From a virus (lineage: Duplodnaviria > Caudoviricetes): DNA of 58,714 nt. The notes beneath the pieces were generated by a model. That model was not told the DNA's origin. It worked only from the letters and a program-made list of their open reading frames with translations, and did not search any database. This document shows positions 1,587 to 57,738 of the stretch, piece by piece. The position numbers were made by a program, and so were the translations under genes. Positions within the stretch are counted from its first letter, which is position 1. Each line of letters opens with the position of its first letter. Location of the stretch: positions 1 to 58,714 of the IMG/VR virus record IMGVR_UViG_3300043399_000459. One strand, 5' to 3'.

Positions 1587-1595
1587 AGCTTCCTC

Positions 1596-3340: not shown

Positions 3341-3459
3341 TGGTTTGCTCCTTTGCTCAGTTCGTTGCTCAGTTCTTCCAACATATCCGCAGCGCGCAGG
3401 ATGTCGGCGTTGTCCCAGTTGCGGCGCAGGCGCTCGGCTAGGGCTTTAGGGTCGGTCAT
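3337..3459 (-). CDS. 40-aa micro-ORF (MTDPKALAERLRR...)
   Basis: Hand-translated; ATGA-coupled on both sides. Confidence 0.6.
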   Translation of the reverse strand: MTDPKALAERLRRNWDNADILRAADMLEELSNELSKGANQ

Positions 3460-3671
3460 GTCGTCTGCTCCATGGCTTGGCGGTGGACGATCGCCTTGAC
3501 GCTGCGCCGCCTGTCATGCGTCAGCCTGCGCTCGGCCACCGGCAGCGCCAGAGCCTCGCTCAGCGCGTCGACGACGCAACTGAACGTCTTCTCGGTGCCG
3601 TAGGGCGTCCTGTAGACCAGCATGCAGGCGTAGCGCCGCGTCGGCGCGTCGTGGAACCTGTGCCTCCTCAT
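3456..3671 (-). CDS. Hypothetical protein
   Basis: ATGA-coupled ORF. Confidence 0.65.
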   Translation of the reverse strand: MRRHRFHDAPTRRYACMLVYRTPYGTEKTFSCVVDALSEALALPVAERRLTHDRRRSVKAIVHRQAMEQTT

Positions 3672-3832
3672 CTCTCGCCCTCCGTCAGCAGGTGCCGCAT
3701 GCCGAGGCGCTCGGCCTCAGCCAGCAGGTGGCGGTAGCGCCGGCGTGCCAGCTCCAGTTGCTCGGGCAGCACCCTGCGCCTGTAGCGCAGGTAGTGCCGC
3801 TCGCGCGTCTCTCGTGCGGCCTCGTCGGTCAC
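3668..3832 (-). CDS. Hypothetical Arg-rich protein
   Basis: GTG start overlapping the upstream stop. Confidence 0.55.
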   Translation of the reverse strand: MTDEAARETRERHYLRYRRRVLPEQLELARRRYRHLLAEAERLGMRHLLTEGER

Positions 3833-4044
3833 GTGATCAGGCCCCGGGCGCGACAGGACTGCTCGAGATGGTAGGGTGCAGTGCCCCACAGCCCCGCAGT
3901 CTGGTCCCAGAGGCGGCACAGGGCGCGCAGGCGGGCGCCAGAGGCCCTGACTGCCTTGCGCAGCTCCTCGGCCTCCCTGAGCGCCTCTACGGCCTCTGTG
4001 AGGACGTCCAGCTCAGTGTGGGTGCGTGTCAAAGTGTCAGACAT
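3829..4044 (-). CDS. Hypothetical protein
   Basis: GGAGG RBS before MSDTLTR. Confidence 0.65.
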   Translation of the reverse strand: MSDTLTRTHTELDVLTEAVEALREAEELRKAVRASGARLRALCRLWDQTAGLWGTAPYHLEQSCRARGLIT

Positions 4045-4435
4045 CGTCGCGCCCTCCCTGCTCGAACTGCTCCAGCCACTCCAGCCACTCGTTGGCGTCG
4101 TGTGCGACGTCGCCGAAGATGTGGCCAACGTGCTCGCCGTGCACGCTGGCCAGCAGGCACAGGCGGCGCAGGATGGCCTCGGCGGTCTCGACCTCGCGGG
4201 TCAGTTGTGCGTTGTCGTCCCTGAGATCCGCGACGGTGAGGCGGGTGTCGTCGAGCACACGCTCGAACTCTTTGTTCTCACGCTCGAGCGCAGTGATGTC
4301 GTCGAGGTCGGCGCAGTCCTGCAGGCGCTCGCCGAGGACGATCGCCAACTCGTTGCCGCTGTGGCGCGCTTCCTCGATGAGGCGCAGGTTGCTCTCTGAC
4401 CGCCAGTAGGTGCGGTCGTATGCGGTGATGGTCAT
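4037..4435 (-). CDS. Hypothetical coiled-coil protein
   Basis: First gene after the repeated promoter; GGAG RBS. Confidence 0.8.
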   Translation of the reverse strand: MTITAYDRTYWRSESNLRLIEEARHSGNELAIVLGERLQDCADLDDITALERENKEFERVLDDTRLTVADLRDDNAQLTREVETAEAILRRLCLLASVHGEHVGHIFGDVAHDANEWLEWLEQFEQGGRDDV

Positions 4436-5695: not shown

Positions 5696-5737
5696 TTGCT
5701 GAGAAGCCCTACATAGCATGTACACCTGCGGTTGCAA
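5696..5737 (-). promoter_or_regulatory. Early promoter/leader motif, copy 3
   Basis: TTGCAA-N16-TATGTA-GGGCTTCTCAGCAA. Confidence 0.75.
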
Positions 5738-5799
5738 TAGATTTTTTTCATAGGCGGACGGACAAATTAAAAGCGCAGAAGGCGCATGTCTGTCCGGTG

Positions 5800-5828
5800 T
5801 TGCCGTGCGGCAGACAGACATGCTATAT
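5800..5828 (+). promoter_or_regulatory. Sigma70-type promoter for the AAA gene, overlapped by an inverted repeat
   Basis: TTGCCG-N17-CTATAT; CATGTCTGTC (5785-5794) / GACAGACATG (5813-5822) inverted repeat. Confidence 0.55.
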
Positions 5829-5856
5829 GGCGTCCGTCCTTAACACGGAGATTGAT

Positions 5857-6966
5857 ATGTGGACCGGAGATAGACTTGTATCCAACCCTTTGGTGGTGTT
5901 GCAGAATGCCGCAGAAACTAGGGACGTGCTGCGCGGCCTTGTGCCGGATAGGGGCATCACATGGCTGTATGGCTCGTCCATGAGCTTCAAGACGTTTGTC
6001 GCTATGTCGATGGCGGCGGCGATGTCCGACGAGCGCCCGTGGATGGGGCGCCAGACCGAGTCGGCGTTTGTGGTGTATCTTGGCGCAGAGGGCGGCAATG
6101 CGTTGCACATTCGGCGCGCTGCGGCGGAGTTGGATGCGGGGGCGTCCGGGCCGATGTACGTCGTGCAGGAGCGGCCTCAGCTTGACACGAGGTTCGGGGC
6201 TTTGCGTCTGCGCGGTATCCTTGCCGGGTTGACTGGCTTGTACCGCGGGGAGACGTACGAGGACATCGAGGAGGACGCGGTTTTCAGCGGCGCGTTTGCG
6301 AAATATGATGACGTCGGTGCGTGGGCGGAGGCGGACACGGCGGCGACTGTCGTGTGTTTCATTGACACGTACTCGCAGACGTCCGGCGGGGACGACAAGG
6401 CCAACGTGGCAGCCTACATCAAGAACCTTCGCGACTTGATTGACGCGGCTGCGCAGGAGGATTGGCGGCTGGCGTTTGTGGTGATCGACCACGCGACCAA
6501 GACTGGCGGGAGTTACATGGGCAGCGTCGCGAAGCTCAACGACGTGGACAGCCAAATTGAGGTGTTGCGCGCGTCCTCGGCCTACCGGGCTGTCCTGCAC
6601 CAGCGCAAGACGAAGGACGGCGTCGAGAGTAAGCCGCTAGACGTGGAGTTGGTACCCTTCGTGCTGGAGGGCTTCACAGACGCCTATGGGGACCCGCTCA
6701 GCACGTTGGTGGTCCGAGATGGCACCAAGGCCGCCCGGCTTGCTGAAGTCGCTGACGGGAAGGCTGGGGTGCTGCTCGGGCTGATCTTCAACCAAGGCGG
6801 CAGCGTGACGGACACCCAACTGCGTAGGCTGTTTGCGGAGGACAGCTCGAACGAGGGTATCAAGGCGGACAGCGTCAGCAAGGCGTATCGTCGATGCAAG
6901 GAAACCCTGCTCGACGGTGGCATGATTTCGGAGGCGGACGGGATCATCAACATCGGACACGGGTAG
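5857..6966 (+). CDS. RepA-like (AAA_25/SF4-type) helicase/ATPase, second copy
   Basis: LYGSSMSFKT Walker A, VYLGAEG, FIDT Walker B, IDHATK, RKTKDG; GGAG RBS before ATG 5857. Confidence 0.8.
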   Translation: MWTGDRLVSNPLVVLQNAAETRDVLRGLVPDRGITWLYGSSMSFKTFVAMSMAAAMSDERPWMGRQTESAFVVYLGAEGGNALHIRRAAAELDAGASGPMYVVQERPQLDTRFGALRLRGILAGLTGLYRGETYEDIEEDAVFSGAFAKYDDVGAWAEADTAATVVCFIDTYSQTSGGDDKANVAAYIKNLRDLIDAAAQEDWRLAFVVIDHATKTGGSYMGSVAKLNDVDSQIEVLRASSAYRAVLHQRKTKDGVESKPLDVELVPFVLEGFTDAYGDPLSTLVVRDGTKAARLAEVADGKAGVLLGLIFNQGGSVTDTQLRRLFAEDSSNEGIKADSVSKAYRRCKETLLDGGMISEADGIINIGHG

Positions 6967-16777: not shown

Positions 16778-16808
16778 TCTAACAGACTGAAAAGCAATGC
16801 TTTTCGAG

Positions 16809-16843
16809 GTGGCTCCCGTCTCAGTGACGGGGGCCACTTTTTT
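16809..16843 (+). terminator. Rho-independent terminator after the capsid gene
   Basis: GTGGCTCCCGTC-TCAGT-GACGGGGGCCAC-TTTTTT. Confidence 0.85.
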
Positions 16844-16901
16844 GTTTGCTATCCTGCGTCTGGTTTTGTATCTTACAAAGCCAGTCACGAAGGAGCGAAA
16901 T

Positions 16902-18452
16902 GTGAAAGCCAGCCTCTCAGAAGTCCTGTCCAAGTTCCACCCCGACATGCTCGCTCGCTACGATTTCAGTCGGGCTGAGTATCACGGCGCACTGGAGCGC
17001 ATGACCGGCATCGTCTGCCCGGATCACGGCGAGTTCACGCAGTACCCCGCGCAGCTACGCAAGAACGGGTCGGGCTGCCCCGCGTGCGGCGATGCGGTGC
17101 GGCGCGCCAAGCGCCGATCTTCGCAGGAGGACGTCATTCAGCAGGCGCACGAGCGGCATGGTGGTTTCTACACCTACGACCGAGCCGTCTACGTCAACAA
17201 CACCACCAAGTTTACCGTTACGTGCCCGCACCACGGCGACTTCAGCATCACGCCCAACGGCCATGTCTCAGGCGGCAAGGGCTGCCCGGTGTGTGGCGCG
17301 CTCAAACGCGGGCACCGCAAGGATGTCACGGGCGCCGCCCGCAAAACGGCCGACGCCAAGATGCTCGCGCATGCCGCCGACTTTGAGCGCGAGGCCCGCA
17401 AGGTGCATGGCGCTGCCTACGACTACAGCGCCGTTGTCTACGCCGGGCGCAAGAAGCCGGTGACTATCCTGTGTCGCGCTCACGGACCCTTTCAGCAGCG
17501 ACCCGAGCACCACCTGAAGCGCGCGCATGGCTGCCCGGAATGTTCGCACCACCGATCCAAGGGCGAGGCCGCGCTGGCCAAGTTCATGGCGATCTTCGGC
17601 CCCGTGGAGGAGCGCAACCGCAAGCTGATCGCGCCGAAGGAACTGGACATCTATGCACCCTACGCCAACGTGGCTGTGGAGTACTGCGGCGAGTACTGGC
17701 ACGCCTCGTCGTCAGCCGATGAGGAGCGCAAGGACCGCACCCGGCACCTCGATAAGCATCGCGCTTGCGAGGCTGCCGGTATCCGCCTGCTGACTGTCTA
17801 CGAGAGCGAGTGGTTGGAGAGGCCCGCTGCCATACGACGCCTGATCCGCAACGCACTGGGCAAGGCGCGTGGCCGCGTCATGGCCCGCAAATGCGCCGTT
17901 GAGGCAGTCGGCAGCGCCGAGGCAACGGCATTCTTCGAGCGCTACCATCCGCAGGGTGGTGCTGGGTGGGGCCAGACATACGGGCTGCGCTACAGCGGCA
18001 AGCTGGTGGCGTGTATGCGCTTCGCCTTTGGGGCAAATGACCGGGGCGCGAATGCCGAGCGCGCGTGGACGCTGACACGCTACGCTACCCGCGTATCGGT
18101 CCCCGGGGGAGCCTCAAGGTTGTTCGCGGCGTTTTTGGCAGACCGCGACCCCGAAAGCGTCAAGTCTTTCTCTGACAACCGCTACTTCACTGGGCGGATG
18201 TACGAGCAATTGGGCTTTGTGCTTGAGGAGGAGACCGATCCCGACTACCAAGTCTACCACCCCAAGACTGGCCTGCTGGCCAAGACGGCGTGGCAGCGCA
18301 AGAACATCCCTGCGCGCATTCGCGACATCGGCGCGTCGGAGGTCTTCAACCCGGCCACGGACCTGCGCAGCGAGCGCGACATGACGTACCTGCTTGGCGC
18401 CCAGCGCATGTTTGATTGCGGCAAGAAGCGATGGGTCTGGCGCAAAGCATGA
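16902..18452 (+). CDS. Free-standing endonuclease: three CxxHG/CPxC zinc modules, PD-(D/E)xK-like domain and Hef-like C-terminus
   Basis: CPDHG..CPAC, CPHHG..CPVC, CRAHG..CPEC; ELDIY...VEYCGEYWH; SFSDNRY; FDCGKKRW; AAGGAG RBS before GTG 16902. Confidence 0.8.
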   Translation: MKASLSEVLSKFHPDMLARYDFSRAEYHGALERMTGIVCPDHGEFTQYPAQLRKNGSGCPACGDAVRRAKRRSSQEDVIQQAHERHGGFYTYDRAVYVNNTTKFTVTCPHHGDFSITPNGHVSGGKGCPVCGALKRGHRKDVTGAARKTADAKMLAHAADFEREARKVHGAAYDYSAVVYAGRKKPVTILCRAHGPFQQRPEHHLKRAHGCPECSHHRSKGEAALAKFMAIFGPVEERNRKLIAPKELDIYAPYANVAVEYCGEYWHASSSADEERKDRTRHLDKHRACEAAGIRLLTVYESEWLERPAAIRRLIRNALGKARGRVMARKCAVEAVGSAEATAFFERYHPQGGAGWGQTYGLRYSGKLVACMRFAFGANDRGANAERAWTLTRYATRVSVPGGASRLFAAFLADRDPESVKSFSDNRYFTGRMYEQLGFVLEEETDPDYQVYHPKTGLLAKTAWQRKNIPARIRDIGASEVFNPATDLRSERDMTYLLGAQRMFDCGKKRWVWRKA

Positions 18453-44247: not shown

Positions 44248-44613
44248 TCATCGCCCCGCTCCCTTCGCCTCGGCCATAAGCGCTAGATAGGCGATAGCAT
44301 CTTCCGCGCTATCGCCATGGTAGGCGCTGCGCGTGAACAGCCGCACCTGCTTGAGCAGCGCCATGAGCAGCCAGCCCTCGCTCTCGCTCAGGTCGCGCCC
44401 GGTCACGGCGTTGAACGCCGTCACGGTCTTGCCCATGGACCTCTCGCCCTCTGGTTCGTCGTAGGTCGACGCGCGGTCGTGCATGTGCATGGCGGCGCGG
44501 CCAAGCAACTCAGGTGCCAGCGGATCCGGCAGCGTTTGCTGCGGCGTCTCCAGCGTGACGCTCTCCTCCAGCACGTGCTCGTTCGGCTCGGTGTCGCAGG
44601 GCAGGTCGTTCAT
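44248..44613 (-). CDS. DUF6378-like protein
   Basis: R...YD...MALLK.VR...H.DS.ED.IAY. Confidence 0.7.
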   Translation of the reverse strand: MNDLPCDTEPNEHVLEESVTLETPQQTLPDPLAPELLGRAAMHMHDRASTYDEPEGERSMGKTVTAFNAVTGRDLSESEGWLLMALLKQVRLFTRSAYHGDSAEDAIAYLALMAEAKGAGR

Positions 44614-45980
44614 CGTTTCGCTCCTTTGCGTTGCATCGCCTCTAGCAGGACGTCCTGAACCGACCGCTTCGACGCGAGCCGCTCCATGACAACCTCGTCC
44701 ATCGTGTCCTTGGCGAGTATGGGGTAGATGAGGCAGGGCCGGTCGAAGCCGGCCTGCTTCTGTCGGGCTGGGCCGATGCGCTCGATGACCTGCATGTAGT
44801 CCTCAAGCGACCAGTTCACTCCGAAAAGCGCCATGATGTTACCGCCATATTGGAGGTTTAATCCGTGTGCGGCGCTTTTAGGATGAAGGAAAAGTAATGG
44901 TATCTTCCCGTCGTTCCACTCTTTAACCGTATCAGCGTTACTGTCCAACACCCGAGCTTTAGGGTAGCGACGCCGTAGCCGCTCGAGGTCGTGCCTGAAC
45001 TGGTACGCCACGAGAACAGGCGCGCCATTCGCCTCTTCGATGATGCTATCCAGCGCATCCAACTTTGCCCCATGCACTTCCTCCCAATTGCCTTGATCAT
45101 CCGTATAGATAGCCCCGTTGGCGATCTCCAAGCACCTCTGCGTCTTGACCGCCGCGTTCGCCGCCTCGACCCCCGTCTCCTCCAGCTCCGCGAACATGTG
45201 GGCCTCCATGCTGTCGTAGACGTGGCGCACGGAGGGGATGAGGCGGACGTAGACCGGGTTGACGATCGGCTCGTCTACGTCGAGGCCCTTCACAGTCAGG
45301 CAGATGTCCTTGAGCTTCTCCTGTATCTCCACCTGCGCGTGCTCCATGGGCTGCAGGCTGTAGCCGTCATAGCCCTTGCGGAACCAGCGCATCTCGAAGG
45401 CGCTGAACGTGCGGCCCAGCCGCTCGCCTTGGTCGAGGAAAAAGGTCTGCCCCCAGAGATCCTTCAGGCCGTTCGGCGCGGGCGTGCCGGTCAGTCCGAT
45501 GAAGCGGCGGACGCGCGTGTGCGCGACCTCGGCCAGCGCCTTGGCGCGGCTGCCACCCTGCCTGATGCGGAAGGATTTCAAACGCGGTAATTCGTCAGCC
45601 ACCACGGTCTTGAACGGCCACGCGTCGCCGTAGAACGATCGCAGCCAGCCGAGGTTCTCGTAGTTCGTGCAGTAGATGTCCGCATCCGCGGCAGCCGCCC
45701 GGTCGCGCTGCTTCGGCGTGCCTGCGATGACGCTGACGCGCAGGTGGCTGAGGTGCTGCCAGCGCTTGACCTCCTCGGGCCACGTCGACCGGGCGACGCG
45801 CAGCGGTGCCAGCACAAGCGCCGGGTAGACGTCGTCGACCAGCGAGAGTTGGTCAAGGGCCGTCAGCGTCGAGACGGTCTTCCCGCCGCCCATTGGCGCC
45901 CACACGGCGCAGCGCTTGTTCTGGCATATGAAGTCAATGACGTCTTCTTGGTACGGATGCGGCTTGAAGGTCTGCGTCAC
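44610..45980 (-). CDS. SNF2-family helicase
   Basis: HPYQ, MGGGKT, VADE, LTGTP, HGLNLQ, ERIG.RQ. Confidence 0.92.
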   Translation of the reverse strand: MTQTFKPHPYQEDVIDFICQNKRCAVWAPMGGGKTVSTLTALDQLSLVDDVYPALVLAPLRVARSTWPEEVKRWQHLSHLRVSVIAGTPKQRDRAAAADADIYCTNYENLGWLRSFYGDAWPFKTVVADELPRLKSFRIRQGGSRAKALAEVAHTRVRRFIGLTGTPAPNGLKDLWGQTFFLDQGERLGRTFSAFEMRWFRKGYDGYSLQPMEHAQVEIQEKLKDICLTVKGLDVDEPIVNPVYVRLIPSVRHVYDSMEAHMFAELEETGVEAANAAVKTQRCLEIANGAIYTDDQGNWEEVHGAKLDALDSIIEEANGAPVLVAYQFRHDLERLRRRYPKARVLDSNADTVKEWNDGKIPLLFLHPKSAAHGLNLQYGGNIMALFGVNWSLEDYMQVIERIGPARQKQAGFDRPCLIYPILAKDTMDEVVMERLASKRSVQDVLLEAMQRKGAKR

Positions 45981-46487: not shown

Positions 46488-46531
46488 GTTGCTGAGAAGC
46501 CCTAGCTATCGCATTCAACTGCACGTTGCAA
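46488..46531 (-). promoter_or_regulatory. Early promoter/leader motif, copy 4
   Basis: TTGCAA-N17-TAGCTA-GGGCTTCTCAGCAAC. Confidence 0.75.
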
Positions 46532-46534
46532 CCC

Positions 46535-46825
46535 CTATTTCAGGCCGTTGCGCACAATTTCCACGATCGCCTCGATGTCGGACATGTCCCGCGCCGTGAA
46601 GACCGGGATCCCCGCGTTCTGCATCCGCTCGACCTCCCGCTGCTGGAGCTTGCTGTAGCGGTCGTCCCCGGCCTTGATCTCGACGAACGCGGCGGCAGGC
46701 CAGTCCCACCAGATGTAGCAGTCAGGGCAGCCCCGGCGGCCCTCCCAGCGCACCTTGCGGTACTGGCCTCCGCTACCCTGCACCAGCTTCTTGAGGCGGT
46801 CCTGCAGCTTGCCTGCGGGGGTCAT
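46535..46825 (-). CDS. VRR-NUC nuclease
   Basis: GRRGCPD...FVEIKA...SKLQ. Confidence 0.85.
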   Translation of the reverse strand: MTPAGKLQDRLKKLVQGSGGQYRKVRWEGRRGCPDCYIWWDWPAAAFVEIKAGDDRYSKLQQREVERMQNAGIPVFTARDMSDIEAIVEIVRNGLK

Positions 46826-46950
46826 GCAAACGCCCACCGGATCCAAGCCACGCCCTTGGCGATCTCGACCACCAGTACCCACAGGATCAGGATCGCGACC
46901 GCCGCTACGCCAGCACAGCCCGTCAAAGTACTTTTGAGGTCTTCGTCCAT
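46822..46950 (-). CDS. 42-aa membrane peptide
   Basis: Hydrophobic stretch; AAGGA RBS; ATGA overlap. Confidence 0.55.
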   Translation of the reverse strand: MDEDLKSTLTGCAGVAAVAILILWVLVVEIAKGVAWIRWAFA

Positions 46951-46953
46951 TTC

Positions 46954-49900
46954 TCAGTCCTTGCGATAGCGATGGCACTCGAACCCTGTGGCCGCCAACG
47001 GCAGCCCCAGCGACCAACTCGGGTTCGTCGCCATCATGCCAGCCAACGCCTCCGCCGTGAAGTCCGGAGTGTCAGGCACCTCGCACACAAGCTCGTCGTG
47101 GACGCGCAGGACCACCGGATAGCCCGCCTGCTCGGCGCGGTAGAAGCCGACGAAGAACACGTCGCGGGCAGTAGCCTGCACAACATTCTCGCAGTTGTGC
47201 ACGATCATCGTGTCGCCGTTTTCGCCAGCCACCACAAACCTGCGAAGCGGCCCACTATTCACCAAATCGTAAACTTCCGCGATGTGTCGGGTGCCTCGAA
47301 CAGCCTGCTGTCCGGCACTCCGGTGTTCACTCGATAGTACAGCGTCGTCCGGTTCAGCCCCGATCGGTCTGCCGCTTCCGCAACTGTCATCCGGCCCCAT
47401 GGTGTGTTTATCGGTACGTTCGCCCGCCTGTTTCGGGCCTGCCTCGTGTACGTCGCCCAGACGCAGTTCTGCGGGCTGTATCCTGCGGAATTGTCGCGCC
47501 GCTCTAGCGTCAAGCCCTCCTTGTACGTCGGGCCCATGTCTGCCCAGAAGGCGGAGAAGGAGCGACGCCACTCTTCGCACACTTTGATACCGCGACCGCC
47601 GTAGTTTTTCCAAGCCTGATGCGTAGGCAGCGTGCAACGGTCGATCATGCTCCGCCAGACCGCAAAGGCCTTGTGGTGCGACATCCCGTGCGTCTTGCGC
47701 TTGGTCGATATGGTGTGCCGCTTCATGCACCCGCAGGACGCTTGCACGCCGCGCTTCTGCTGTTTTGTTATCTCGATCGCGGGGAGAATTATCTCTTTCC
47801 CGCATACGCAGCGGAGCGACCACAGTGATCGGCTGCCATCGCTGCCTTGGTAGATCAAAACCGTCAGGTATCCGAGTGTCTGCCCGCTCAAGTCCCTCGC
47901 TCTGTGATGCACGCACCCATCCTTCCGTAGACAGCACTTCATGGTCAGGCGTCATCCAAACGCCATTCAGACAGATTACCTCTTTAATACCCCTCCTGAC
48001 AAGACCCTCGTGCTCGACCCAAGCGCCCCCGTCCCAGAGCTTATGCGTTGTGCTGACATGTTCGATTGGCAGCCATCCGGCGTCTGTCAGTACTAGCGTC
48101 CCCTGTGCTAAGCACAGTTTGCCGTAGTATGTCTCCAGCCACTCCCACTTGCGCGTGAACTGGTTGACACCCTCGTAGAGGATCTTGCCGTCGTCGTTCA
48201 CGTGCATGTTGCGGTAGCATATGTAGCGGCCGCTCGGCAGCTTGCAGCGCACGTACATCGCGCCGTCTGGCCCCTCGCGGCGGTCGAACTGGACGTAGCC
48301 GCGCACGTCGTACGTGTCGCCCACCTCACCCCTGATCGCCTTGCGGCACGCCGCCTCGACGTCGTACCAGAAGGCCTTGGTCGCCGGGTGCGCCTTGCGC
48401 CAGCTCCAGACCACATCTTGCACCTCTTCATCGGACATAGCGTCAACACGAGTGCCGCCCATTTTGCGAAAGGCACCAACGGATCCACCAAATCCACAGT
48501 TATGGACTATCACCGGCCCTGCGTCAGTCAGGATCGCAAACCGATTTCGCGGCCCCACATTGGCAATGTCGTAGACGTTCTTCCAATTCGAGGATGCGGG
48601 CTTGTAGAACTGGGATGCGTCGACCGGGGTTACGATTGGCTCGCCGTCCGATGAAACGGAGATTACCCGGCTCGTAACCCCGGTCGACATCAATTCGATC
48701 AAGCTCGAGTTCTGGTCTATCCCAGCCATCAAGCGTGACAAGATACCTGAGAAAAGCTGCTCGATCTGTTCGCCACGGCTCAAAGACGCGGATGCCTCGA
48801 CTGCCGTAGTTGGTGTAGGCTTTGTCGTTCGGGTTGTGGCACCTGTTGAGGCAAGCGGAGATGCGATTGCACAAACGCCGTCTATGCTCGTCATCTGGGC
48901 ATACGTCTGCATAGCGGAACCACGCTTTTGTCCAACGCCCCGCTTTCTTTTTTGCGCAGCTATTGCAGCGGGTGCTGGCTCCGCGACGGATATTGTGGAT
49001 GTCGGTTCCGTACGGGCCTGCCCCGCAAGAACATTTAACAAGAACAGCTCTAAGTCCTCCGCGAGGGCCGAGATCAAAGCCAACGACTTCAAGCTCTCCG
49101 AACCTGTCGCCAATGCTTGGTCGCGGCAGTTCGGGAAGGTAGCGACCGTCTGGGCCGATTGCCAAGTCTCTCCGCACAAGATGAGATGATCCGGTGTTAT
49201 CTCCACTCCGTCTAGCTGGACGACTTGTCTCCGGCCTCGGTCCACTAGGCCTGTATTTGGCACCCACTCCACTCCGTCCCATAGCAAGTCCTCCGCTGTA
49301 ACCTCTGTAATCAGCTTTACGCCAGTTTTGGTAATAACGCGGGTACGGGGGCCTAGGCAAGCGAGTTCGGATACTTTTCCGGGGTTTTGCCGCTCGTCCT
49401 TCGTTATGTCGCCCGGATCCTTGCCGAGGATGCGCCCGGCGGTGACCTTGTAGAGGTCCGGCCCCTCGCCCCGGTCGTACGCCTTGAAGGCCTCGATCTT
49501 CCACTGCTCGCCCGCCAGCCACGCCAGCACGCGCCCCTCGATGTTCGACAGGTCTGCGATCACGAACTTCTTGCCCGGCTCGGCCACGAGGCAGCCGCGC
49601 ACGGCCATGGAGCAGCGCTCGCTGACATTGCCCCACAGGATGTCGTCGCAGTCCGCCTTGAACGCCGCGACGGTCATCTCCTGTACGTCGCCGTCGAACC
49701 AGTCGGGTGTCCTAGGTAAATTTTGCGGCTGGAAAATACGACCCGCGTCCCTGAGAGTACGTGATGCGCCGCCGTACTGCACGGTTCCCCTAAGCCGCCC
49801 GTCACTCGACACTGCGCCGAGCAAAGCCTTGTACTTCGACGGGCTGGTGGCTGCCGCCTGCTGGCGCATCTTGAGCAGCTTGCGCACCTCTGCGGGCAGC

Positions 49901-50703
49901 TCACCGGCAAGCAGCTTCCCGACGTCGTCCTTGGTCAGGCCCTCGGCGTTGACGCCCAGCTCCGCCATGCGGGCGAGGAGCGCGTTGCGCTGCGTGGTCG
50001 AGCCCAGAGCGCCGCCGGTCAGAAGGGCGGTAGCGTCGGCCAGAGATCGAGAAGCTCGTTCAAAAGCTCGGAGAGCGGATCGGGCGAGTTCTCGGTCGAC
50101 GGCGATACCACTGTCAGAAGTTCTTTGGTCGAGTAGCCAGAACTGGCGCTCAGCCCGATTACAATTCCAATCCGGCAGCCGTCGATATACGGATCGCATC
50201 GCGTCCACATCGAGGCGGGCGTATTCGATGAACCTTTCCCACTCATCCGGGTGCGTCTCCCGCGTAGCTCTGCGAAGCTTCTGGTTCTTGGGCCGGGGCT
50301 TCGAGAACAGTTGTATCAGCTTCTTGCCGTCCTTGTCCTTAGCCTTGTCGGTAGGCACCTCGAGGACGTCACAGAGTTGACCCAGAGACGCAGGCAGCGC
50401 GTGTTGGAGCGCAATTACCATGGTGTCCGTGATTTTATCCACAGGAATATGCACGCCGCGGTGGCGCAGCACGGTGCGGTCAAAGGCGCTGTTGTGGATC
50501 ACGACCTCGTCCGCCGTGTCGATCATGAGCTGCACTGGACCCTTGGCGGCCTGCCAGTCGTCGCTCGTGTCAAGCACCGTCACAGGCTCGTCGTCCCACG
50601 CGTACGCCACCAGCAAGATCTCGGCGTCCTCGGCATAGCGGTGCGCGCCGTGCTTGATGGGGGTGTCGGAGTAGGTCTCGAGGTCAAGATACAGTGTAGA
50701 CAA
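46954..50703 (-). CDS. Family A DNA polymerase precursor with two inteins (about 655 aa mature)
   Basis: LDLET exonuclease motif, HNSAFD, QPQNLPR, DLSNIEGR (motif A), RQ..GKVSEL (motif B), VHDE (motif C). Confidence 0.95.
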   Translation of the reverse strand: MSTLYLDLETYSDTPIKHGAHRYAEDAEILLVAYAWDDEPVTVLDTSDDWQAAKGPVQLMIDTADEVVIHNSAFDRTVLRHRGVHIPVDKITDTMVIALQHALPASLGQLCDVLEVPTDKAKDKDGKKLIQLFSKPRPKNQKLRRATRETHPDEWERFIEYARLDVDAMRSVYRRLPDWNCNRAERQFWLLDQRTSDSGIAVDRELARSALRAFERASRSLADATALLTGGALGSTTQRNALLARMAELGVNAEGLTKDDVGKLLAGELPAEVRKLLKMRQQAAATSPSKYKALLGAVSSDGRLRGTVQYGGASRTLRDAGRIFQPQNLPRTPDWFDGDVQEMTVAAFKADCDDILWGNVSERCSMAVRGCLVAEPGKKFVIADLSNIEGRVLAWLAGEQWKIEAFKAYDRGEGPDLYKVTAGRILGKDPGDITKDERQNPGKVSELACLGPRTRVITKTGVKLITEVTAEDLLWDGVEWVPNTGLVDRGRRQVVQLDGVEITPDHLILCGETWQSAQTVATFPNCRDQALATGSESLKSLALISALAEDLELFLLNVLAGQARTEPTSTISVAEPAPAAIAAQKRKRGVGQKRGSAMQTYAQMTSIDGVCAIASPLASTGATTRTTKPTPTTAVEASASLSRGEQIEQLFSGILSRLMAGIDQNSSLIELMSTGVTSRVISVSSDGEPIVTPVDASQFYKPASSNWKNVYDIANVGPRNRFAILTDAGPVIVHNCGFGGSVGAFRKMGGTRVDAMSDEEVQDVVWSWRKAHPATKAFWYDVEAACRKAIRGEVGDTYDVRGYVQFDRREGPDGAMYVRCKLPSGRYICYRNMHVNDDGKILYEGVNQFTRKWEWLETYYGKLCLAQGTLVLTDAGWLPIEHVSTTHKLWDGGAWVEHEGLVRRGIKEVICLNGVWMTPDHEVLSTEGWVRASQSEGLERADTRIPDGFDLPRQRWQPITVVAPLRMRERDNSPRDRDNKTAEARRASVLRVHEAAHHIDQAQDARDVAPQGLCGLAEHDRPLHAAYASGLEKLRRSRYQSVRRVASLLLRLLGRHGPDVQGGLDARAARQFRRIQPAELRLGDVHEAGPKQAGERTDKHTMGPDDSCGSGRPIGAEPDDAVLSSEHRSAGQQAVRGTRHIAEVYDLVNSGPLRRFVVAGENGDTMIVHNCENVVQATARDVFFVGFYRAEQAGYPVVLRVHDELVCEVPDTPDFTAEALAGMMATNPSWSLGLPLAATGFECHRYRKD
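47194..48114 (-). mobile_element. Intein 2 in DNA polymerase (307 aa)
   Basis: YGKL|CLAQGT...TPDH...VYDL...IVHN|CENVVQ. Confidence 0.92.
47259..47912 (-). CDS. HNH homing endonuclease in the +1 frame inside intein 2
   Basis: CVCG...SCGC...HGMS...WRSMIDRC...YGGRGIKVCEEW...LERRDNSAGYSPQNCVWAT...Q.RNRR plus HTH; AAGGA 7 nt before GTG 47912. Confidence 0.85.
   Translation of the reverse strand: MHHRARDLSGQTLGYLTVLIYQGSDGSRSLWSLRCVCGKEIILPAIEITKQQKRGVQASCGCMKRHTISTKRKTHGMSHHKAFAVWRSMIDRCTLPTHQAWKNYGGRGIKVCEEWRRSFSAFWADMGPTYKEGLTLERRDNSAGYSPQNCVWATYTRQARNRRANVPINTPWGRMTVAEAADRSGLNRTTLYYRVNTGVPDSRLFEAPDTSRKFTIW
48499..49359 (-). mobile_element. Intein 1 in DNA polymerase motif B (287 aa)
   Basis: SELA|CLGPRT...TPDH...VYDI...IVHN|CGFGG. 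Confidence 0.92.
48524..49282 (-). CDS. HNH homing endonuclease in the +2 frame inside intein 1 (start ATG 49282 or TTG 49165)
   Basis: GDRFGELEV...CSCG...CNSC...RCHNP...NYGSRGI...LDRIDVDRGYEPGNLRF; GGAGG before 49282 and GGAG before 49165. Confidence 0.82.
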   Translation of the reverse strand: MGRSGVGAKYRPSGPRPETSRPARRSGDNTGSSHLVRRDLAIGPDGRYLPELPRPSIGDRFGELEVVGFDLGPRGGLRAVLVKCSCGAGPYGTDIHNIRRGASTRCNSCAKKKAGRWTKAWFRYADVCPDDEHRRRLCNRISACLNRCHNPNDKAYTNYGSRGIRVFEPWRTDRAAFLRYLVTLDGWDRPELELDRIDVDRGYEPGNLRFIGRRANRNPGRRIPVLQARILELEERLRHCQCGAAKSVCDPD

Positions 50704-50706
50704 GAA

Positions 50707-50827
50707 AGCCCTCCTCTTTTGGAGAGGCGCGCAGCGGTTTCAGCAACACGAGGAGACCCCACGTTCCGCTGCGCACCTCACCAAAAGGGAGGGCTGCCGG
50801 TCCCAAGGCAGCAGGGACCGACAGCCC
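50707..50827 (-). promoter_or_regulatory. Structured polymerase leader: long RBS-sequestering hairpin plus a competing hairpin
   Basis: Arms 50707-50737 and 50766-50795 (about 28 bp); second stem 50791-50804 / 50814-50827 competes for GGGCT. Confidence 0.75.
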
Positions 50828-50838
50828 AAGGTATAGCG

Positions 50839-51093
50839 TCAGATAAGGTCCATGCCAAGCTCATCCGCGTAAAGGTTCAGGATAGCGTTGCGCTCCCTGA
50901 GATCGTCCGGCTTCAGCTTCCTGAGCCGCACGATTTCACGCATGATCTTGGCGTCGTATCCGACCGCCTTGGCCTCTGCGTAGACGTCCTTGACGTCGTC
51001 GGCGATGGCCTTCTTCTCCTCCTCCAGCCGCTCTACTCGCTCCACGAGCAGCCGGAGGCGGTCGTTCGCCGTGCTTTCGCGCCCCGTACTCAC
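50839..51093 (-). CDS. GapR/DUF2312 DNA-binding protein
   Basis: LRLLVERVERLEEEKKAIADDVKDVYAEAKAVGYD. Confidence 0.9.
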   Translation of the reverse strand: MSTGRESTANDRLRLLVERVERLEEEKKAIADDVKDVYAEAKAVGYDAKIMREIVRLRKLKPDDLRERNAILNLYADELGMDLI

Positions 51094-51692: not shown

Positions 51693-52934
51693 TCAGTTTT
51701 CAGTCTTGAAAAGACCAGCGAAGTCATCGCTGGCCGATGGGACGGCAATTTCTTGCCGCCTGTCAGTGACCGGAGCCACAGACGGCTTTCCGGCAGACTG
51801 GGTGATGAGGCCCTGCGCCTTCTCCCAGCGTGCCGAAGTCAGAAGCTTCTCAGCCTTGGTCGGGCTGATCAGCGAATAGTCATACATCTCCTCGTGCTTC
51901 AGGCGGAACGACTTAAAGAGCTTCTCCACCGCCTTGTCGTCACTCCACTTGCGCGCGCCGCGCTTGCCGGTGACCAGCTTGAAGCCCTCGACGGGTTTGC
52001 CTGCCAGCAGGCGGCGCTCGACCTCTGCGCGCACGCCCTTGCACCAGTCCTCGACCAGCCCGACTTTGGCCATGGCGATCGACAGGTAGTTGTCGCCCGT
52101 CTGGCTGTCCGGCACCTCCGGCAGGAACTGCGCGAAGTCCTCGGCGGTCGCGACGGACGATCCGCCCACGACTTCGGTGACCTCCGCACGCAGCGCCGGG
52201 CACGCCGCCTTGGCCTTGCAGAAGCGGCACTGCTTCTCGCCGGGGTTCAGGTACATCCAGTCGAGCTTGTCGTTCTGGGCAAGCACGTCCTGCGCGTCTC
52301 TGGCGATGTTGGCCGCCGCGCGCGCCTCTAAGCCGAACTCCTCCAACTGCGCGACCGGGATGCTCCACTCGCTCACGTGGTTCAGCCGCGGCTGGTGGAT
52401 CAGCATCGTGACGTAGGAGAAGTCCGAGATCAGGCCATACTCGTGCAGCGCGCCGAGGGCGTACATCTGCGTCTGCTCGTTGTCCTCAGCCAGCACCTGC
52501 ACGCCCATGCCGTACTTCAGGTCGATGACCTCGATCGCCTCTTGATCGTAGTCGATGATCACGGCGTCGCTCGTGCCGGTCGCGCCCTCCTCGCCCGTGA
52601 TGTGGCCGATCGGCAGCTTCTGTTCGACTAGCAGCGTCTTGCCCGCCGCGCGCTCGCGGACCAGCTTGACGTAGTCGTCGACGTGCGCCGCCATGTCAGG
52701 CGTGACGGGCCACGAGACGCGCTTGCCGTGGTCGTCGAACTCGATGTCGCGGCCGACGTAGTCACGCGCGGCGCTGTCAGGGTCGTTGAGGACCCGCGCC
52801 GCCAACTCGTGCGCCGCGGTGCCCTCGCGGGCGTAGCTGCTGCTCGTGTCGGGTATGCCCTCCGACAGCGCGACGCTGCCGGGGCACGCCATCCACCTAG
52901 AGGCCCCCGAGGGGCTGAGCTTGGCGTGCGCCAT
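51693..52934 (-). CDS. DUF2800 Cas4-like PD-(D/E)xK nuclease
   Basis: HAKLSPS...WMACPGS, GTAAHE, GTSD, IDLKYG, QCRFC..K..C. Confidence 0.88.
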   Translation of the reverse strand: MAHAKLSPSGASRWMACPGSVALSEGIPDTSSSYAREGTAAHELAARVLNDPDSAARDYVGRDIEFDDHGKRVSWPVTPDMAAHVDDYVKLVRERAAGKTLLVEQKLPIGHITGEEGATGTSDAVIIDYDQEAIEVIDLKYGMGVQVLAEDNEQTQMYALGALHEYGLISDFSYVTMLIHQPRLNHVSEWSIPVAQLEEFGLEARAAANIARDAQDVLAQNDKLDWMYLNPGEKQCRFCKAKAACPALRAEVTEVVGGSSVATAEDFAQFLPEVPDSQTGDNYLSIAMAKVGLVEDWCKGVRAEVERRLLAGKPVEGFKLVTGKRGARKWSDDKAVEKLFKSFRLKHEEMYDYSLISPTKAEKLLTSARWEKAQGLITQSAGKPSVAPVTDRRQEIAVPSASDDFAGLFKTEN

Positions 52935-53383
52935 TAGAGGGCGTCCGACAGGGCGTTGCACAGCTCCGGCCAGCGGGCCTCGTCGACCTCAGAGGCGCGC
53001 GCCGCGCCGAACTGGCTGAGGATCTCGATGGCGACGTCCTTGCCCTTCTCCTTGGCCACGCGCAGCACCAGAGGCGTGACGTCCTTGTCGAAGTCGAGAA
53101 CAGGCGCGTCTGGCTCAGAAGGGGCAGGCGCACTTTCCACAGTCGGCGTATCCGGCTCGCTGCTCAAAGTCGCTGAGGGGGCCTCCACAGTCGACGCAGG
53201 TGGCGCGTTTCCCGCCTCTTCCTTCTTCGCCTTGGCGGCCTTCGGCTTGGCGGGAGCCGCGTCGCGGATCTCAGGCATCACAGGGTCGGACGGCGCCGCG
53301 GTGTGGAACTGGCTGGCCATGGCCAGAAGCTTGCCGCCCAGCTCGCTCATGGTGTCGGCGGTAATCTCAATACGGTAGGTCAT
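52934..53383 (-). CDS. Hypothetical protein (usual DUF2800 neighbour)
   Basis: Pro/Ala linker; ILSQFGA...SEV C-terminal domain. Confidence 0.75.
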   Translation of the reverse strand: MTYRIEITADTMSELGGKLLAMASQFHTAAPSDPVMPEIRDAAPAKPKAAKAKKEEAGNAPPASTVEAPSATLSSEPDTPTVESAPAPSEPDAPVLDFDKDVTPLVLRVAKEKGKDVAIEILSQFGAARASEVDEARWPELCNALSDAL

Positions 53384-54230: not shown

Positions 54231-56273
54231 TCACTCGTAGAAAATTACGCTGCCACCCGTCAGTTTGAGCGGCCCGTCCGGCTCGCGGCTGATCTTCTGC
54301 ACGGCGCGCATGACCGTCTGGCGGCGCGTGTCGCGCTTGTCCGGGTCGGGTGCGGGCATCGTGTCGACGGCGGTGCGGATGAGGCGCTCAAGCGACACAG
54401 CGTCGTCCTTGCCGAACGTCGCCATGGTCTCGATGACGTGCGTCTCGATGGCGCCGCGGCGCTTGACGCCCTTGCGGTCGCCCTCGACCTGCTGGGCCGG
54501 CTCGGCCTCAAGCACGACGCAGCTCGTGATGTCGTCGCCGTCGTCGTCCAAGCCGAGCACGACGGTGTCGAGCTTGAACGGCCACTGCAGGCCGTCCGTG
54601 CCGTCCTTCTGCTTCGTCAGCTTGATCTGCCGGTAGTTCGTGTCCAAGTCGCGGCTGACCTCCAGCTCGGCGTCTACGGCCGCCTTGATGCCCGACCAGC
54701 CGCGCGAGCCGCGCGCGAGATCCTTGCCGGCGTGGTGGACCAGCTCGACCGTCGCGTCCGTCGCCGTGCTGATCGTGCGGCAGTGCGACAGTGCTAGGCC
54801 CATGTCCTCGCCGGCGTTCTCGTTGGCGCCGGGTGTCACCTGCGCGAAGGTGTCGATGATGATGAGCGCGATGTCGTTGATCGTCTTGAGGGCCGCGATC
54901 AGTTCGGTGACGTCCTCCTGCTCGAGTAGGTTGGGGGGCACGGTGATCAGGCCGATGTCGAGCACTGCCGGGTCCACACCGTAATGCTGGCAGGCGGCCA
55001 GTATGCGATTGCCGTACCCCCCGGCGCCCTCGGCCGCGACGATCACAACCTTACCGCGACGCGTCTTGTGACCACGCCACGGCGTCCCCTGTGCGATCGC
55101 CAGCGCCATGTCGAGGGCGACGAAACTCTTGCCCGAGCCGCTTGCCCCATAGAGCAGGATCAAGTCGGCGGCGGGCAGCACGCCCTTGATCAGCCAGTCG
55201 ACCGGCTTGCGCCGGGTGGCCGTCAGGGCGGTGCTGATGGGAAACTTGCCCGCGTATCCTGCGGGCGTCTGTACGCCGAGAGCTGGCTCAAGGTCCGCCA
55301 CCATCGCCTCGGCGCGTTCGATGATGGCGGCGCTCCCCTGCGCCTGCTGCGCCTCCTTGACCATCTTCAGCACGCTGGCCATGGTCACCTGCCTACGGCG
55401 TGTGCCTGCCCGGCGGTCGAAGCCCTCCCACTGGGCGCGTAGCGCCTCCTCGGACGGGTACTTGCCGCCCTGCTCTGACCAGTCGTTCCAGACATCGAAG
55501 CCCTCTTCGGCTCCGTCCGTCTCATGGTGGATGGCCATGCCGACCCGTATCCAGCCGTCGCGGTCCATGTCGGCGTCGAGCTGGCTGACCTTGTCGGCGA
55601 TCTCCTCCAGCGAGAGGCCGATCTTCGGCTCATGCCCGAGCATGAAGTCGTCGGGGTCGACCGGCGCCGGGCCTTCGCCTGCGAAGCGGGTGCGGCAGTA
55701 GTCGATGACGCGGGCGGGCAGGGGCGCAACGCGGTCCTCCCAGCCCATCAGGTCGATGTGGTCGAGCATCCAGCCGGTGACGGTGACGAAGCCGTTCGAG
55801 CTGAACACCTCGGCTCCGAAGCGCTCGGCCGTGGCGGCAGACTTGCGGTTGCCGAGGATGTCGGCCGCGCCAGTGAAGAAGGCACGCACGCCTGCGCCGC
55901 TGGGCGACAACTCGGCATAGGTGCCCTGCACGAGGTCCAGCACGGCGTCGTCGACCTTGCCGTCCACGACGCAGTGGTCGAAGTCGAGGGCGACGATGCC
56001 CGCGTCGGGCGTCAGGGCGAAGCCCACGCCGTCGAGGCCGCGCCGGGCTGCCGCCTCACGCGCGACGGCGAAGGTGGTCAGCTTGGCCAGATCCGACGGC
56101 GAGCCCTGCTGGCCGTAGCGCCTGCCGCCCATGCTGTACTGCGGCACCTTGCGGGGCTTGGCCTCGCCCTCGTGCTGCTCGTAGGCCCACGTGAGCCAGA
56201 GCGGCACGTCCCGCAGCGGCGCAGGGACGTGGATGTCGCGAATGTTGGGCGAAATACGTTGCACGGCGCTCAT
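54231..56273 (-). CDS. Primase-polymerase / PriCT / AAA (RepA-like) helicase fusion
   Basis: ALDFDHC, ELSPSGAG, WIRVGMAIH, YGASGSGKS, IIDT, HHAGK...RGWS. Confidence 0.9.
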   Translation of the reverse strand: MSAVQRISPNIRDIHVPAPLRDVPLWLTWAYEQHEGEAKPRKVPQYSMGGRRYGQQGSPSDLAKLTTFAVAREAAARRGLDGVGFALTPDAGIVALDFDHCVVDGKVDDAVLDLVQGTYAELSPSGAGVRAFFTGAADILGNRKSAATAERFGAEVFSSNGFVTVTGWMLDHIDLMGWEDRVAPLPARVIDYCRTRFAGEGPAPVDPDDFMLGHEPKIGLSLEEIADKVSQLDADMDRDGWIRVGMAIHHETDGAEEGFDVWNDWSEQGGKYPSEEALRAQWEGFDRRAGTRRRQVTMASVLKMVKEAQQAQGSAAIIERAEAMVADLEPALGVQTPAGYAGKFPISTALTATRRKPVDWLIKGVLPAADLILLYGASGSGKSFVALDMALAIAQGTPWRGHKTRRGKVVIVAAEGAGGYGNRILAACQHYGVDPAVLDIGLITVPPNLLEQEDVTELIAALKTINDIALIIIDTFAQVTPGANENAGEDMGLALSHCRTISTATDATVELVHHAGKDLARGSRGWSGIKAAVDAELEVSRDLDTNYRQIKLTKQKDGTDGLQWPFKLDTVVLGLDDDGDDITSCVVLEAEPAQQVEGDRKGVKRRGAIETHVIETMATFGKDDAVSLERLIRTAVDTMPAPDPDKRDTRRQTVMRAVQKISREPDGPLKLTGGSVIFYE

Positions 56274-56286: not shown

Positions 56287-57738
56287 TCATATCAGCGCGA
56301 TAAGGTCGTCGACCATTTGAATGCGTTCACCGATCCAGCGCATTACTGGCACTGCCATGCTGTTGCCCAGCGCCTTGTAGCGCGGGCCATCAGGACACTG
56401 GTCGGCGTTTTTCTTGCGCCACGGGATCGCCGTGAAGCCATCAGGAAAGCCCTGCAGTCTTTCACACTCGACAGGGGTGAGGCGGCGCACCGCGCTGGCG
56501 GCAACATAGCTGCGGCTTGATCCACCGCTCGCTGCGCGGATGTTCGCTGTATCGTGCGGGCCTTCAAATTGGGCGCCGCCTTCTCGACCGCGCATATCAA
56601 AAGCCACGGCAGGCGTTTGCGACTTGATGAGCGCAGGTGCGAACCCATCAGTCACTTCAAGGTTTTGCGTTGAGCCTCTCTGCCGTTCAAAAGCCACCAC
56701 ATCCGGGCCTCTGTCCGCGCACGAGCTGCTGTCATAACGCCGGGTCAAAGTGCGGGCGGTGCCATCTTCGCTGAACGTGGCTACCGCTTGCGGCACGGTG
56801 CGTGCCTCCATTGTGTACGCAACATCGTCGCTGCGTATTCCAATACCGTCAGGACCAGCATCGGGGTTCTCGCTAATCGCGCGCTCCTGTATTGCGTATG
56901 CCACACAGGACGCAGTGTCCTGATCATTACGCGCCGCTACCGTCTTCGACACGCCTGAAGTCTCCTGCTGGTTGTAGCAGTCGAACGCTATGACGTTTTC
57001 GTCCTTGTTGTGGCCCGTGCCTGAGTTGGCCAAGGAGGAGGTGATCGCATTGGCGGTACCAGCAGCCCACTTTACAGAAGATCGCTGCCCTCCGGCAACC
57101 GCTGCAAAGTTGTCGCTGTCCTCTCTGTGACTGCTCTGAGACTGCGCTCTAAGGCTGCGGGCAACGCCTTGCCCCTTTTCTCTGCGCGGCGCAGGATGCC
57201 CTGACAGGCTGTGGCGCTCAAAAAGAACCGCTGCGGCACGGCGCCAGTCTCCAAGGTATCCGACAACAAACACACGGCGGCGTCGCTGGGCCACTCCGAA
57301 GTACTGAGCGTCCAGCACTCGGTAGGCGAGGCCGTACCCGAGGTCTTCCAGCGCCCCGAGGATGGAACCAAAGTCCCGTCCTCCGTTCGATGACAAGACA
57401 CCGGGGACGTTTTCCCAGACGATCCAACGAGGCCGCTCTCTCTGAGCAAGTCGGCAAAACTCAAGCGCGAGGTTACCACGCTCGTCGTCCAGTCCTCCTC
57501 GGAGGCCTGCGACGCTGAAGGATTGGCAGGGTGTCCCGCCAACGAGGAGATCAATTTTGCCATACTGGTTCTGCTCAATAGTGGTGAAGTCGCCGTGTAG
57601 GGGAACCTCCGGGTAGCGGTGTTCTAGCACCGCCCGGGGAAACGCCTCTATCTCGGAAAAGAACGCAGGCTCCCACCCCATGTGGTGCCACGCCATCGTC
57701 GCGGCCTCAATGCCGCTGCAAACCGATCCGTAACGCAT
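56287..57738 (-). CDS. C5-cytosine DNA methyltransferase with expanded variable region
   Basis: SVCSGI, GGTPCQ, WENV, QRRRR, RRLTP.ECERLQGF, ALGNS. Confidence 0.93.
   Translation of the reverse strand: MRYGSVCSGIEAATMAWHHMGWEPAFFSEIEAFPRAVLEHRYPEVPLHGDFTTIEQNQYGKIDLLVGGTPCQSFSVAGLRGGLDDERGNLALEFCRLAQRERPRWIVWENVPGVLSSNGGRDFGSILGALEDLGYGLAYRVLDAQYFGVAQRRRRVFVVGYLGDWRRAAAVLFERHSLSGHPAPRREKGQGVARSLRAQSQSSHREDSDNFAAVAGGQRSSVKWAAGTANAITSSLANSGTGHNKDENVIAFDCYNQQETSGVSKTVAARNDQDTASCVAYAIQERAISENPDAGPDGIGIRSDDVAYTMEARTVPQAVATFSEDGTARTLTRRYDSSSCADRGPDVVAFERQRGSTQNLEVTDGFAPALIKSQTPAVAFDMRGREGGAQFEGPHDTANIRAASGGSSRSYVAASAVRRLTPVECERLQGFPDGFTAIPWRKKNADQCPDGPRYKALGNSMAVPVMRWIGERIQMVDDLIALI
57072..57578 (-). 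CDS. Overlapping +1-frame ORF in the methyltransferase (EcoHK31I beta-like)
   Basis: LSDTLE...VPQRFFLSATACQGILRRAEKRGKALP motif; start uncertain. Confidence 0.65.
   Translation of the reverse strand: MSRTSMAKLISSLAGHPANPSASQASEEDWTTSVVTSRLSFADLLRESGLVGSSGKTSPVSCHRTEDGTLVPSSGRWKTSGTASPTECWTLSTSEWPSDAAVCLLSDTLETGAVPQRFFLSATACQGILRRAEKRGKALPAALERSLRAVTERTATTLQRLPEGSDLL

Follow-up and report, generated by a model that had tools for sequence, protein, structure and literature searches.

Two predicted inteins with out-of-frame nuclease genes in a phage family A DNA polymerase

Inteins whose homing endonuclease lies in a reading frame other than that of the splicing domain reportedly include those treated by Gorbalenya in 1998 under the title 'Non-canonical inteins', as cited in later preprints. 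Gosselin et al. (bioRxiv 2025) describe inteins of actinophages in which the nuclease is endonuclease VII-like and lies in frame 3, or is LAGLIDADG or VSR-like and runs antisense, credit Gorbalenya 1998 with the antisense LAGLIDADG case, and propose that a free-standing endonuclease gene invaded the intein, the in-frame middle of which is structureless. A preprint by Phillips, DeSimone and Gogarten (bioRxiv 10.64898/2026.09.14.751524) reports a cyanobacterial dnaX intein with a LAGLIDADG open reading frame (ORF) in the +2 frame; selection there depends on the frame and is low in that of the nuclease but relaxed in that of the extein. ShiLan-domain 'hidden HNH' insertions in phage methylases were described by Arsenault et al. 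2025 (PMC11855218). Here we analyze a complete virus record from IMG/VR (IMGVR_UViG_3300043399_000459, 58,714 bases, hereafter the window), and we consider it highly probable that related class-1 inteins with out-of-frame homing nucleases have entered its family A DNA polymerase gene (PolA) at two places, both in conserved regions of the active site. The alternate-frame layout, which an initial annotation of this DNA implied to be new, had already been described in the two intein preprints, and the RefSeq record of phage APSE-1 annotates a nested gene, P46, as 'HNH endonuclease' inside the polymerase gene P45.

Two inteins in PolA, each with a second open frame

The polymerase gene, its two inserts and the ORFs nested in them are as follows.

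46954-50703, minus strand: PolA, family A DNA polymerase, 1249 codons including both inteins, with an extein of about 655 amino acids
48499-49359, minus strand: intein 1, 287 amino acids (PolA residues 449-735), between GKVSELA and CGFGGS, with junctions (marked by a slash) ELA/C...HN/CGF
47194-48114, minus strand: intein 2, 307 amino acids (PolA residues 864-1170), between YYGKL and CENVVQATARD, with junctions GKL/C...HN/CEN
48524-49282, minus strand: nuclease 1 ORF, frame +2, 252 amino acids if started at the ATG at 49282, conserved core 49120-48527
47259-47912, minus strand: nuclease 2 ORF, frame +1, 217 amino acids from the conserved GTG at 47912

PolA matches Pfam DNA_pol_A (9.4e-13) and phrog_17 (7.5e-92) and can be aligned with 22 phage polymerases. 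It is the single PolA gene identified in the genome, and both insertions break its conserved polymerase motifs; the site of intein 1 is presumably motif B. The initial annotation had placed two homologous inteins in this open frame of 1249 codons. Their limits fall exactly on the coordinates that it gave, and the motifs that it listed are present: both inserts begin with Cys1, carry TPDH about 55 residues in, end in VYD...(I/V)VHN and are followed by Cys+1. Homology is borne out as well, as the site-1 and site-2 types share about 70 N-terminal and about 28 C-terminal residues, with C1, T55 and H58 invariant in 19 aligned intein sequences. A profile of the 19 inserts matches solved mini-inteins (Mtu RecA at 2.1e-05, the Neq Pol split intein and Spl DnaX). 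Site 1 is empty in four of the five site-2-type homologues, which read ...GKVMELA(G/L/C)GYGGG there, and none of the 17 site-1-type homologues has an insert at site 2, where the sequence runs ...TYGG-KLVEN.TQA.ARD. A conserved in-frame site that lacks the insert in homologues, the Cys1/TxxH/HN-Cys residues and the profile similarity to inteins together identify both inserts as class-1 inteins, predicted to splice.

Between the splicing parts, the polymerase frame has an unusual composition (37% Ala, Ser or Thr in intein 1; 14.7% Arg in intein 2), and searches of these middles against Pfam and NCBIfam gave only sub-threshold, unrelated matches (E 0.026-0.25), in keeping with the claim that they hold no endonuclease motif in this frame. 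The nucleases lie where they had been predicted, in the +2 frame of intein 1 and the +1 frame of intein 2, as intact same-strand ORFs. Both match PHROG families annotated 'HNH endonuclease': phrog_374 (4e-52 and 2.1e-28 for the two ORFs) and phrog_3377 (1.6e-49 and 7.3e-18). The +1 frame, which has 43 stops across PolA, is free of them from codon 917 to codon 1148, within intein 2; in the +2 frame, with 39 stops, the open stretch runs over codons 330-726 and covers intein 1. The last ~17 codons of nuclease 1 overlap intein block F.

Conservation of the overlap and frame-specific selection

We scored 101 related loci from phage records and IMG/VR mechanically for nesting and frame offset. In 22 of them, the nuclease is nested in a long same-strand polymerase ORF (610-1192 codons), with an offset of +2 in 17 of 17 site-1 loci and +1 in five of five site-2 loci. 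The annotated coding sequence starts of six GenBank records, three for each site, confirm these offsets. Among the 79 free-standing loci, none has a second open frame across the match.

The two nucleases differ in how their relatives are distributed. Among the tblastn matches listed for nuclease 2, 17 of 40 are 50-56% identical and all lie under genes annotated as DNA polymerase (Caulobacter phages RW, KcrB, RLK and GB2A, APSE-1 to APSE-7 and Shewanella phage SFCi1); the other 23 are free-standing genes at 40% identity or less. For nuclease 1, 38 of the 40 matches listed are under polymerase genes, including those of Salmonella SETP3-type phages, EBPR siphovirus 2 and Pseudomonas phage MR14, and homologues 40-73% identical to it occur inside all 17 site-1 polymerase loci. 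The nested gene is annotated in one of seven GenBank loci inspected.

The homologues carry an intein at site 1 only (17 loci) or site 2 only (four loci), and one locus, L011, is occupied at both. Its polymerase ORF (1190-4432) has a mini-intein of ~125 amino acids at site 1 (Cys1, TADH, VHN/C), which lacks a nuclease, together with a full nuclease-carrying intein at site 2. The site-2 inteins of L003 (2808-3728) and L011 (3290-4207) are inserted three residues downstream of the position in the window (...AEN/C.../CTQA versus ...GKL/C.../CENVVQ), and that of L011 ends in SN rather than HN. In Salmonella phage SETP3 (L004), the helicase gene beside the intein-bearing polymerase (5720-6603) is annotated Hom_end_hint, which makes it a second intein-bearing replication gene.

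The polymerase frame avoids stop codons throughout the overlap. When synonymous codons were shuffled within each nuclease ORF with the protein kept (4000 trials), the polymerase frame stayed stop-free in 0.6% of the shuffles of nuclease 2 and 3.8% of those of nuclease 1; the third frame of the window nucleases holds 14-15 stops. All 22 homologues have zero polymerase-frame stops, against a shuffle mean of 1.2-9.0, and 6-22 stops in the third frame. The nuclease ORF is likewise intact in all 22, the five apparent stops being natural ends at, or at most seven codons before, the end of the match. Homologues with an alternate frame riddled with stops, which would have spoken against dual coding, were thus not seen.

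Codon-position variability switches frame between the splicing ends and the overlap, in a comparison that covered four of the six site-2 and seven of the 18 site-1 sequences and left out L003, L011 and eleven site-1 loci.

Intein 1, splicing ends: polymerase-frame third position most variable (mismatch 0.59 and 0.67)
Intein 2, splicing ends: polymerase-frame third position most variable (mismatch 0.66 and 0.65)
Intein 1, overlap: nuclease-frame third position most variable (mismatch 0.565; other two positions 0.31 and 0.36)
Intein 2, overlap: nuclease-frame third position most variable (mismatch 0.59; other two positions 0.32 and 0.33)

Read in the nuclease frame, the overlaps share 160 of 217 and 143 of 198 residues with their nearest homologues (72-74%); read in the polymerase frame, the same DNA gives 103 of 216 and 82 of 197 (42-48%). 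These patterns show that each intein middle is preserved as a nuclease gene, with avoidance of stops as the main constraint on the polymerase frame in that segment, as the initial annotation had proposed under the term dual coding. An ORF in another frame with a stop-free host frame, purifying selection on the nuclease frame and sporadic presence are the marks of a non-canonical intein, and all three were found.

In our reading, the splicing parts, ~70 N-terminal and ~28 C-terminal residues, belong to the polymerase frame, and the ~200 codons between them form the body of a separate same-strand gene in another frame. Its predicted product is a His-Me-finger nuclease with a zinc ribbon, from a family whose phage members are mostly free-standing genes. 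Ribosomes translating the polymerase would read the nuclease DNA as a stop-free, unconserved, low-complexity linker, and the two splicing halves would excise the whole intein and restore the polymerase. Other ribosomes may initiate internally, at a Shine-Dalgarno (SD) sequence and start codon within the codons of block A or B, and produce the nuclease, which would cut intein-free polymerase alleles in co-infection, with repair copying the intein in (homing).

Starts, catalytic residues and alternative explanations

The SD-like sequences upstream of the two nuclease ORFs are given below.

49290-49294, minus strand: GGAGG, putative ribosome-binding site of nuclease 1, 7 nt upstream of the ATG at 49282
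47920-47926, minus strand: GGAAGGA, SD-like, 7 nt upstream of the GTG at 47912, in the polymerase-frame 'EGW' codons after block B

The nuclease 2 gene is likely to be 47912-47259, encoding 217 amino acids. Its start codon occupies one aligned position in four of the six site-2 sequences (GTG in three, ATG in one) and lies at most five codons from it in the remaining two. The counterpart of GGAAGGA is AGGAGG in L010 and AAGG in APSE-1 and RW. An ATG at 47942, ten codons upstream of the GTG, lacks a good SD sequence, and in all six sequences the nuclease frame opens just 4-11 codons upstream of the start. For nuclease 1, the ATG at 49282 falls in the 'LW' codons of intein block A, with GTG 49267 and TTG 49165 as alternative starts; the nuclease frame opens 1-15 codons before the start position in 11 of 18 site-1 sequences.

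Programmed ribosomal frameshifting from the polymerase frame, which would yield the nuclease fused to the N-extein and the N-terminal part of the intein, is the best surviving alternative, and we regard it as improbable. Both ORFs do lie on the polymerase mRNA, the 54-codon leader of nuclease 1 appears unconstrained, and we found no sigma-70-like internal promoter in 46800-51000, a negative that is uninformative since shuffles average 1.1. Frameshifting would leave unexplained the start codons with SD-like sequences conserved at the heads of the site-2 ORFs, and the opening of the frame so shortly upstream of them. The short stretches of the start regions contain no obvious slippery site, as judged without a formal scan.

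The nuclease family was aligned from 65 nested and free-standing sequences. Its conserved columns comprise CxCxCG...SCGC, whose four Cys form a zinc-ribbon pattern, followed by W..M..RC.NP....Y..YGGRGI.VC..W and LT(I/L)(D/E)R.D....Y.P.NC.W.T..eQ..N, with G105, G108, I109, W115, R138, Y145 and N149 invariant. The motifs on which the nucleases had been called complete HNH-type enzymes are thus genuine family columns, although an invariant Arg stands where the canonical catalytic His would be. In a search of solved structures, the last block of the family profile aligns with I-HmuI over its HNH region (1.3e-3) and shows a weak match to PacI (0.2); nuclease 2 alone matched nothing in the PDB at E<=10, so that the family profile was needed, and the N-terminal CxC...CxC zinc ribbon and the YGGRGI module had no match in solved structures. 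The R138/Y145/N149 pattern corresponds to the 'DR.D....Y...N' motif of PacI (PacI, DRSDSFEGYSPQN; window nuclease 2, ERRDNSAGYSPQN). PacI is described as a His-Me finger without the catalytic His, in which a Tyr takes its role (PMC5714182). The nucleases are therefore probably HNH-superfamily enzymes of a PacI-like, Tyr-dependent type.

By tblastn, the family is found in 971 phage records. In-frame fused forms among longer proteins number only two (416 and 414 amino acids), neither with an intein or polymerase, and this blank is weak evidence. The 416-amino-acid protein (P0004) has the nuclease relative within a protein bearing dUTPase Pfam domains, and in Enterococcus phage TJE2 a nuclease relative lies under a gene annotated as a dUTP-related protein; there may be an in-frame or hidden nuclease insertion in a dUTPase gene.

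The missing His bears on a second alternative, in which the ORFs are decaying relics: former in-frame nucleases, frameshifted and now unexpressed pseudogenes, with splicing alone maintained. Nuclease decay is predicted by the homing-cycle model, and the mini-intein at site 1 of L011 fits it. Relics would not be expected to keep intact nuclease ORFs in 22 of 22 loci, with the wobble position following the nuclease frame across lineages merely 40-74% identical, or to retain the R, Y, N and four Cys, which are invariant or nearly so in nested and free-standing members alike. We judge this explanation slightly less probable still than frameshifting.

That the nucleases are truly in frame and were displaced by compensating sequencing or assembly indels is hardly credible. 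The record is metagenome-derived, and the check for paired indels was made on contigs, not raw reads. An independent assembly of the probable source sample nevertheless matches 46954-49450 with zero differences and zero gaps, and small contigs from two other studies cover stretches of intein 2 gap-free, with 0-3 differences. The same offsets also recur in 22 of 22 independent loci, isolate phage genomes included, and not one of these has a stop in the polymerase frame, where the shuffles predict far more. Equally negligible is removal at the RNA level by an intron with the nuclease gene inside each intein, which would make the polymerase-frame reading irrelevant: phage polymerase genes frequently contain group I introns with HNH genes, but a group I or II intron was rejected with no Rfam match in 46500-51000 at E<=1, and stop avoidance in 22 of 22 loci would then be needless.

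A contig from another study (run X5, 9,993 nt) bears on mobility. It matches 47064-48135 with 43 differences, intein 2 being present, and resumes at 49363-49536 after 351 nt, where the spacing in the window is 1,227 nt. The shortfall of 876 bases corresponds to the 861 of intein 1 and 15 more. In the same contig, 1,703 other letters replace 500 bases of the window at 49536-50037, in the N-terminal half of the polymerase, a replacement that may reflect an additional insertion, at a third position.

Several points weigh against the reading of PolA as host to two such inteins. Protein splicing, initiation inside the polymerase gene and cleavage at a specific site are predictions from the DNA, and translation of the nucleases is likewise putative. 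The initial annotation gave each nuclease an internal SD sequence and start, and this stands for the heads of the site-2 ORFs, where both are conserved; where nuclease 1 begins is uncertain, the homologues do not share its GGAGG, and the 54 codons ahead of its core vary as polymerase-frame sequence does. NTG codons at two Trp codons are also weak evidence of starts, being nearly forced by the polymerase frame. Since the position of the canonical catalytic His (DH in I-HmuI) is taken by the invariant Arg R138 (DR), activity would depend on a PacI-like Tyr mechanism, which is suggested by a weak match (E 0.2) and a common motif. Model libraries recognize little here: Pfam and NCBIfam intein models match nothing on either insert, and no Pfam or NCBIfam model covers the nuclease core, HNH_3 touching one of 65 members (E 0.006). 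The codon-position comparison used frame-blind nucleotide alignments, and for one resampling the codon usage came from all ORFs of at least 350 amino acids, some perhaps spurious. Finally, that X5 is apparently a close relative, with site 1 empty and intein 2 in place, is read solely from contig coordinates.

Origin, genome context and comparison with known systems

The initial annotation had taken the two different frames to imply two independent acquisitions. Each nested nuclease group forms a clade (support 100 and 98 in the Shimodaira-Hasegawa-like approximate likelihood ratio test), and the site-2 clade sits among free-standing genes with support of 86-91. However, an approximately unbiased test on 44 rows (18 nested and 26 free-standing; LG+G4, quick tree) did not reject a single clade of all nested nucleases (p 0.66), so the tree does not show independence; the sampling is biased, as all free-standing rows were found with the nuclease 2 query. 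The anatomy favours the claim. The nuclease ORFs begin at different intein blocks, and a conversion from +1 to +2 by flanking indels would break the polymerase because the third frame holds 14-15 stops. On balance, we lean towards independent acquisition of the +1 and +2 forms.

PolA belongs to a replication module on the minus strand (~44.6-57.7 kb), of which the other members are as follows.

44610-45980, minus strand: helicase
51693-52961, minus strand: exonuclease
54231-56273, minus strand: primase
56287-57738, minus strand: C5 methyltransferase

The only near-identical DNA in the phage collection is a 94-base polymerase stretch in four Caulobacter phages. In the structural half of the genome, an ORF of 551 amino acids (16797-18452, plus strand) is probably a free-standing homing endonuclease gene, with matches to phrog_559 'HNH endonuclease' (3.6e-96), phrog_3339 'homing endonuclease' (1.6e-68) and, additionally, Pfam DUF723 and CapR.

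A broader reading is that the two lineages represent a large, old and undescribed overprinted class in the polymerases of proteobacterial phages. Its nuclease would be a PacI-like His-Me finger that relies on a Tyr in place of the His, lacking a Pfam or NCBIfam model and uncharacterised as a homing endonuclease; the ribosome-binding site and start would be built from splicing-motif codons (EGW after block B; LWDG.EW in block A); and mini-inteins would have captured free-standing nuclease genes separately. We offer this tentatively and think it rather doubtful as a whole. If it is true, the same bases serve splicing and translation initiation, and in the +1 and +2 forms nature has replicated the origin of inteins by 'splicing first, endonuclease later'. 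Should the PacI-like chemistry hold, the family is a large untapped source of site-specific nucleases.

Out-of-frame intein endonucleases are called rare in recent preprints; here they occur in 22 phage polymerase loci, some of them in such well-studied phages as APSE of aphid symbionts, Salmonella Jerseyvirus and those of Caulobacter. The frame offset is fixed at +1 or +2, and the two occur together in one genome. The loci expose an annotation gap, as Pfam misses these inteins and the nested gene goes unannotated in six of the seven GenBank loci inspected. They are natural material for studying how an intein merges with a free-standing nuclease gene into a single mobile element, and they indicate how free the sequence of an intein linker can be, the absence of stop codons seeming the sole requirement.

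A full-text search, which did not reach most subscription papers and supplements, found no paper describing this PolA intein family with out-of-frame nucleases. Differential loss of the APSE polymerase intein is mentioned in one paper (PMC7313666), and no description of P46 as the out-of-frame homing endonuclease of an intein was found in a literature search that did not extend to the original 1999 APSE-1 paper. APSE-1 P45 with nested P46, Caulobacter phages RW, KcrB, RLK and GB2A, and Shewanella phage SFCi1 are direct homologues of intein 2 and nuclease 2, with nucleases 50-56% identical to it in the +1 frame at the same or nearly the same site; their polymerases differ in having one intein and an empty site 1. 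Salmonella Jerseyvirus phages of the SETP3 type, EBPR siphovirus 2, Pseudomonas phage MR14 and Vibrio phage 97.13 are direct homologues of intein 1 and nuclease 1, with nucleases 47-52% identical to it in the +2 frame at the same site; they differ in having a single intein, and the nested ORF is unannotated in the four records.

Among more distant systems, ShiLan insertions resemble those of the window in placing an out-of-frame HNH gene in an in-frame, stop-free insertion of a phage gene, but they are without splicing blocks and are presumably retained in the protein, whereas the window inserts have Cys1, TxxH and HN/Cys+1. The dnaX intein shares a same-strand overlapping endonuclease ORF and frame-dependent selection; it differs in that its nuclease is LAGLIDADG rather than a His-Me finger and its host is a bacterial chromosomal gene rather than a phage polymerase. 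The actinophage inteins of Gosselin et al., like those of the window, encode the splicing domain and the homing endonuclease in different frames, but with other nuclease families and in terminase, capsid, thymidylate synthase and polymerase genes. The inteins of the window are further members of this already described class of inteins with out-of-frame endonucleases, and the presence of two of them in one gene, unmentioned in the parts compared of Gosselin et al., is a feature of the window.

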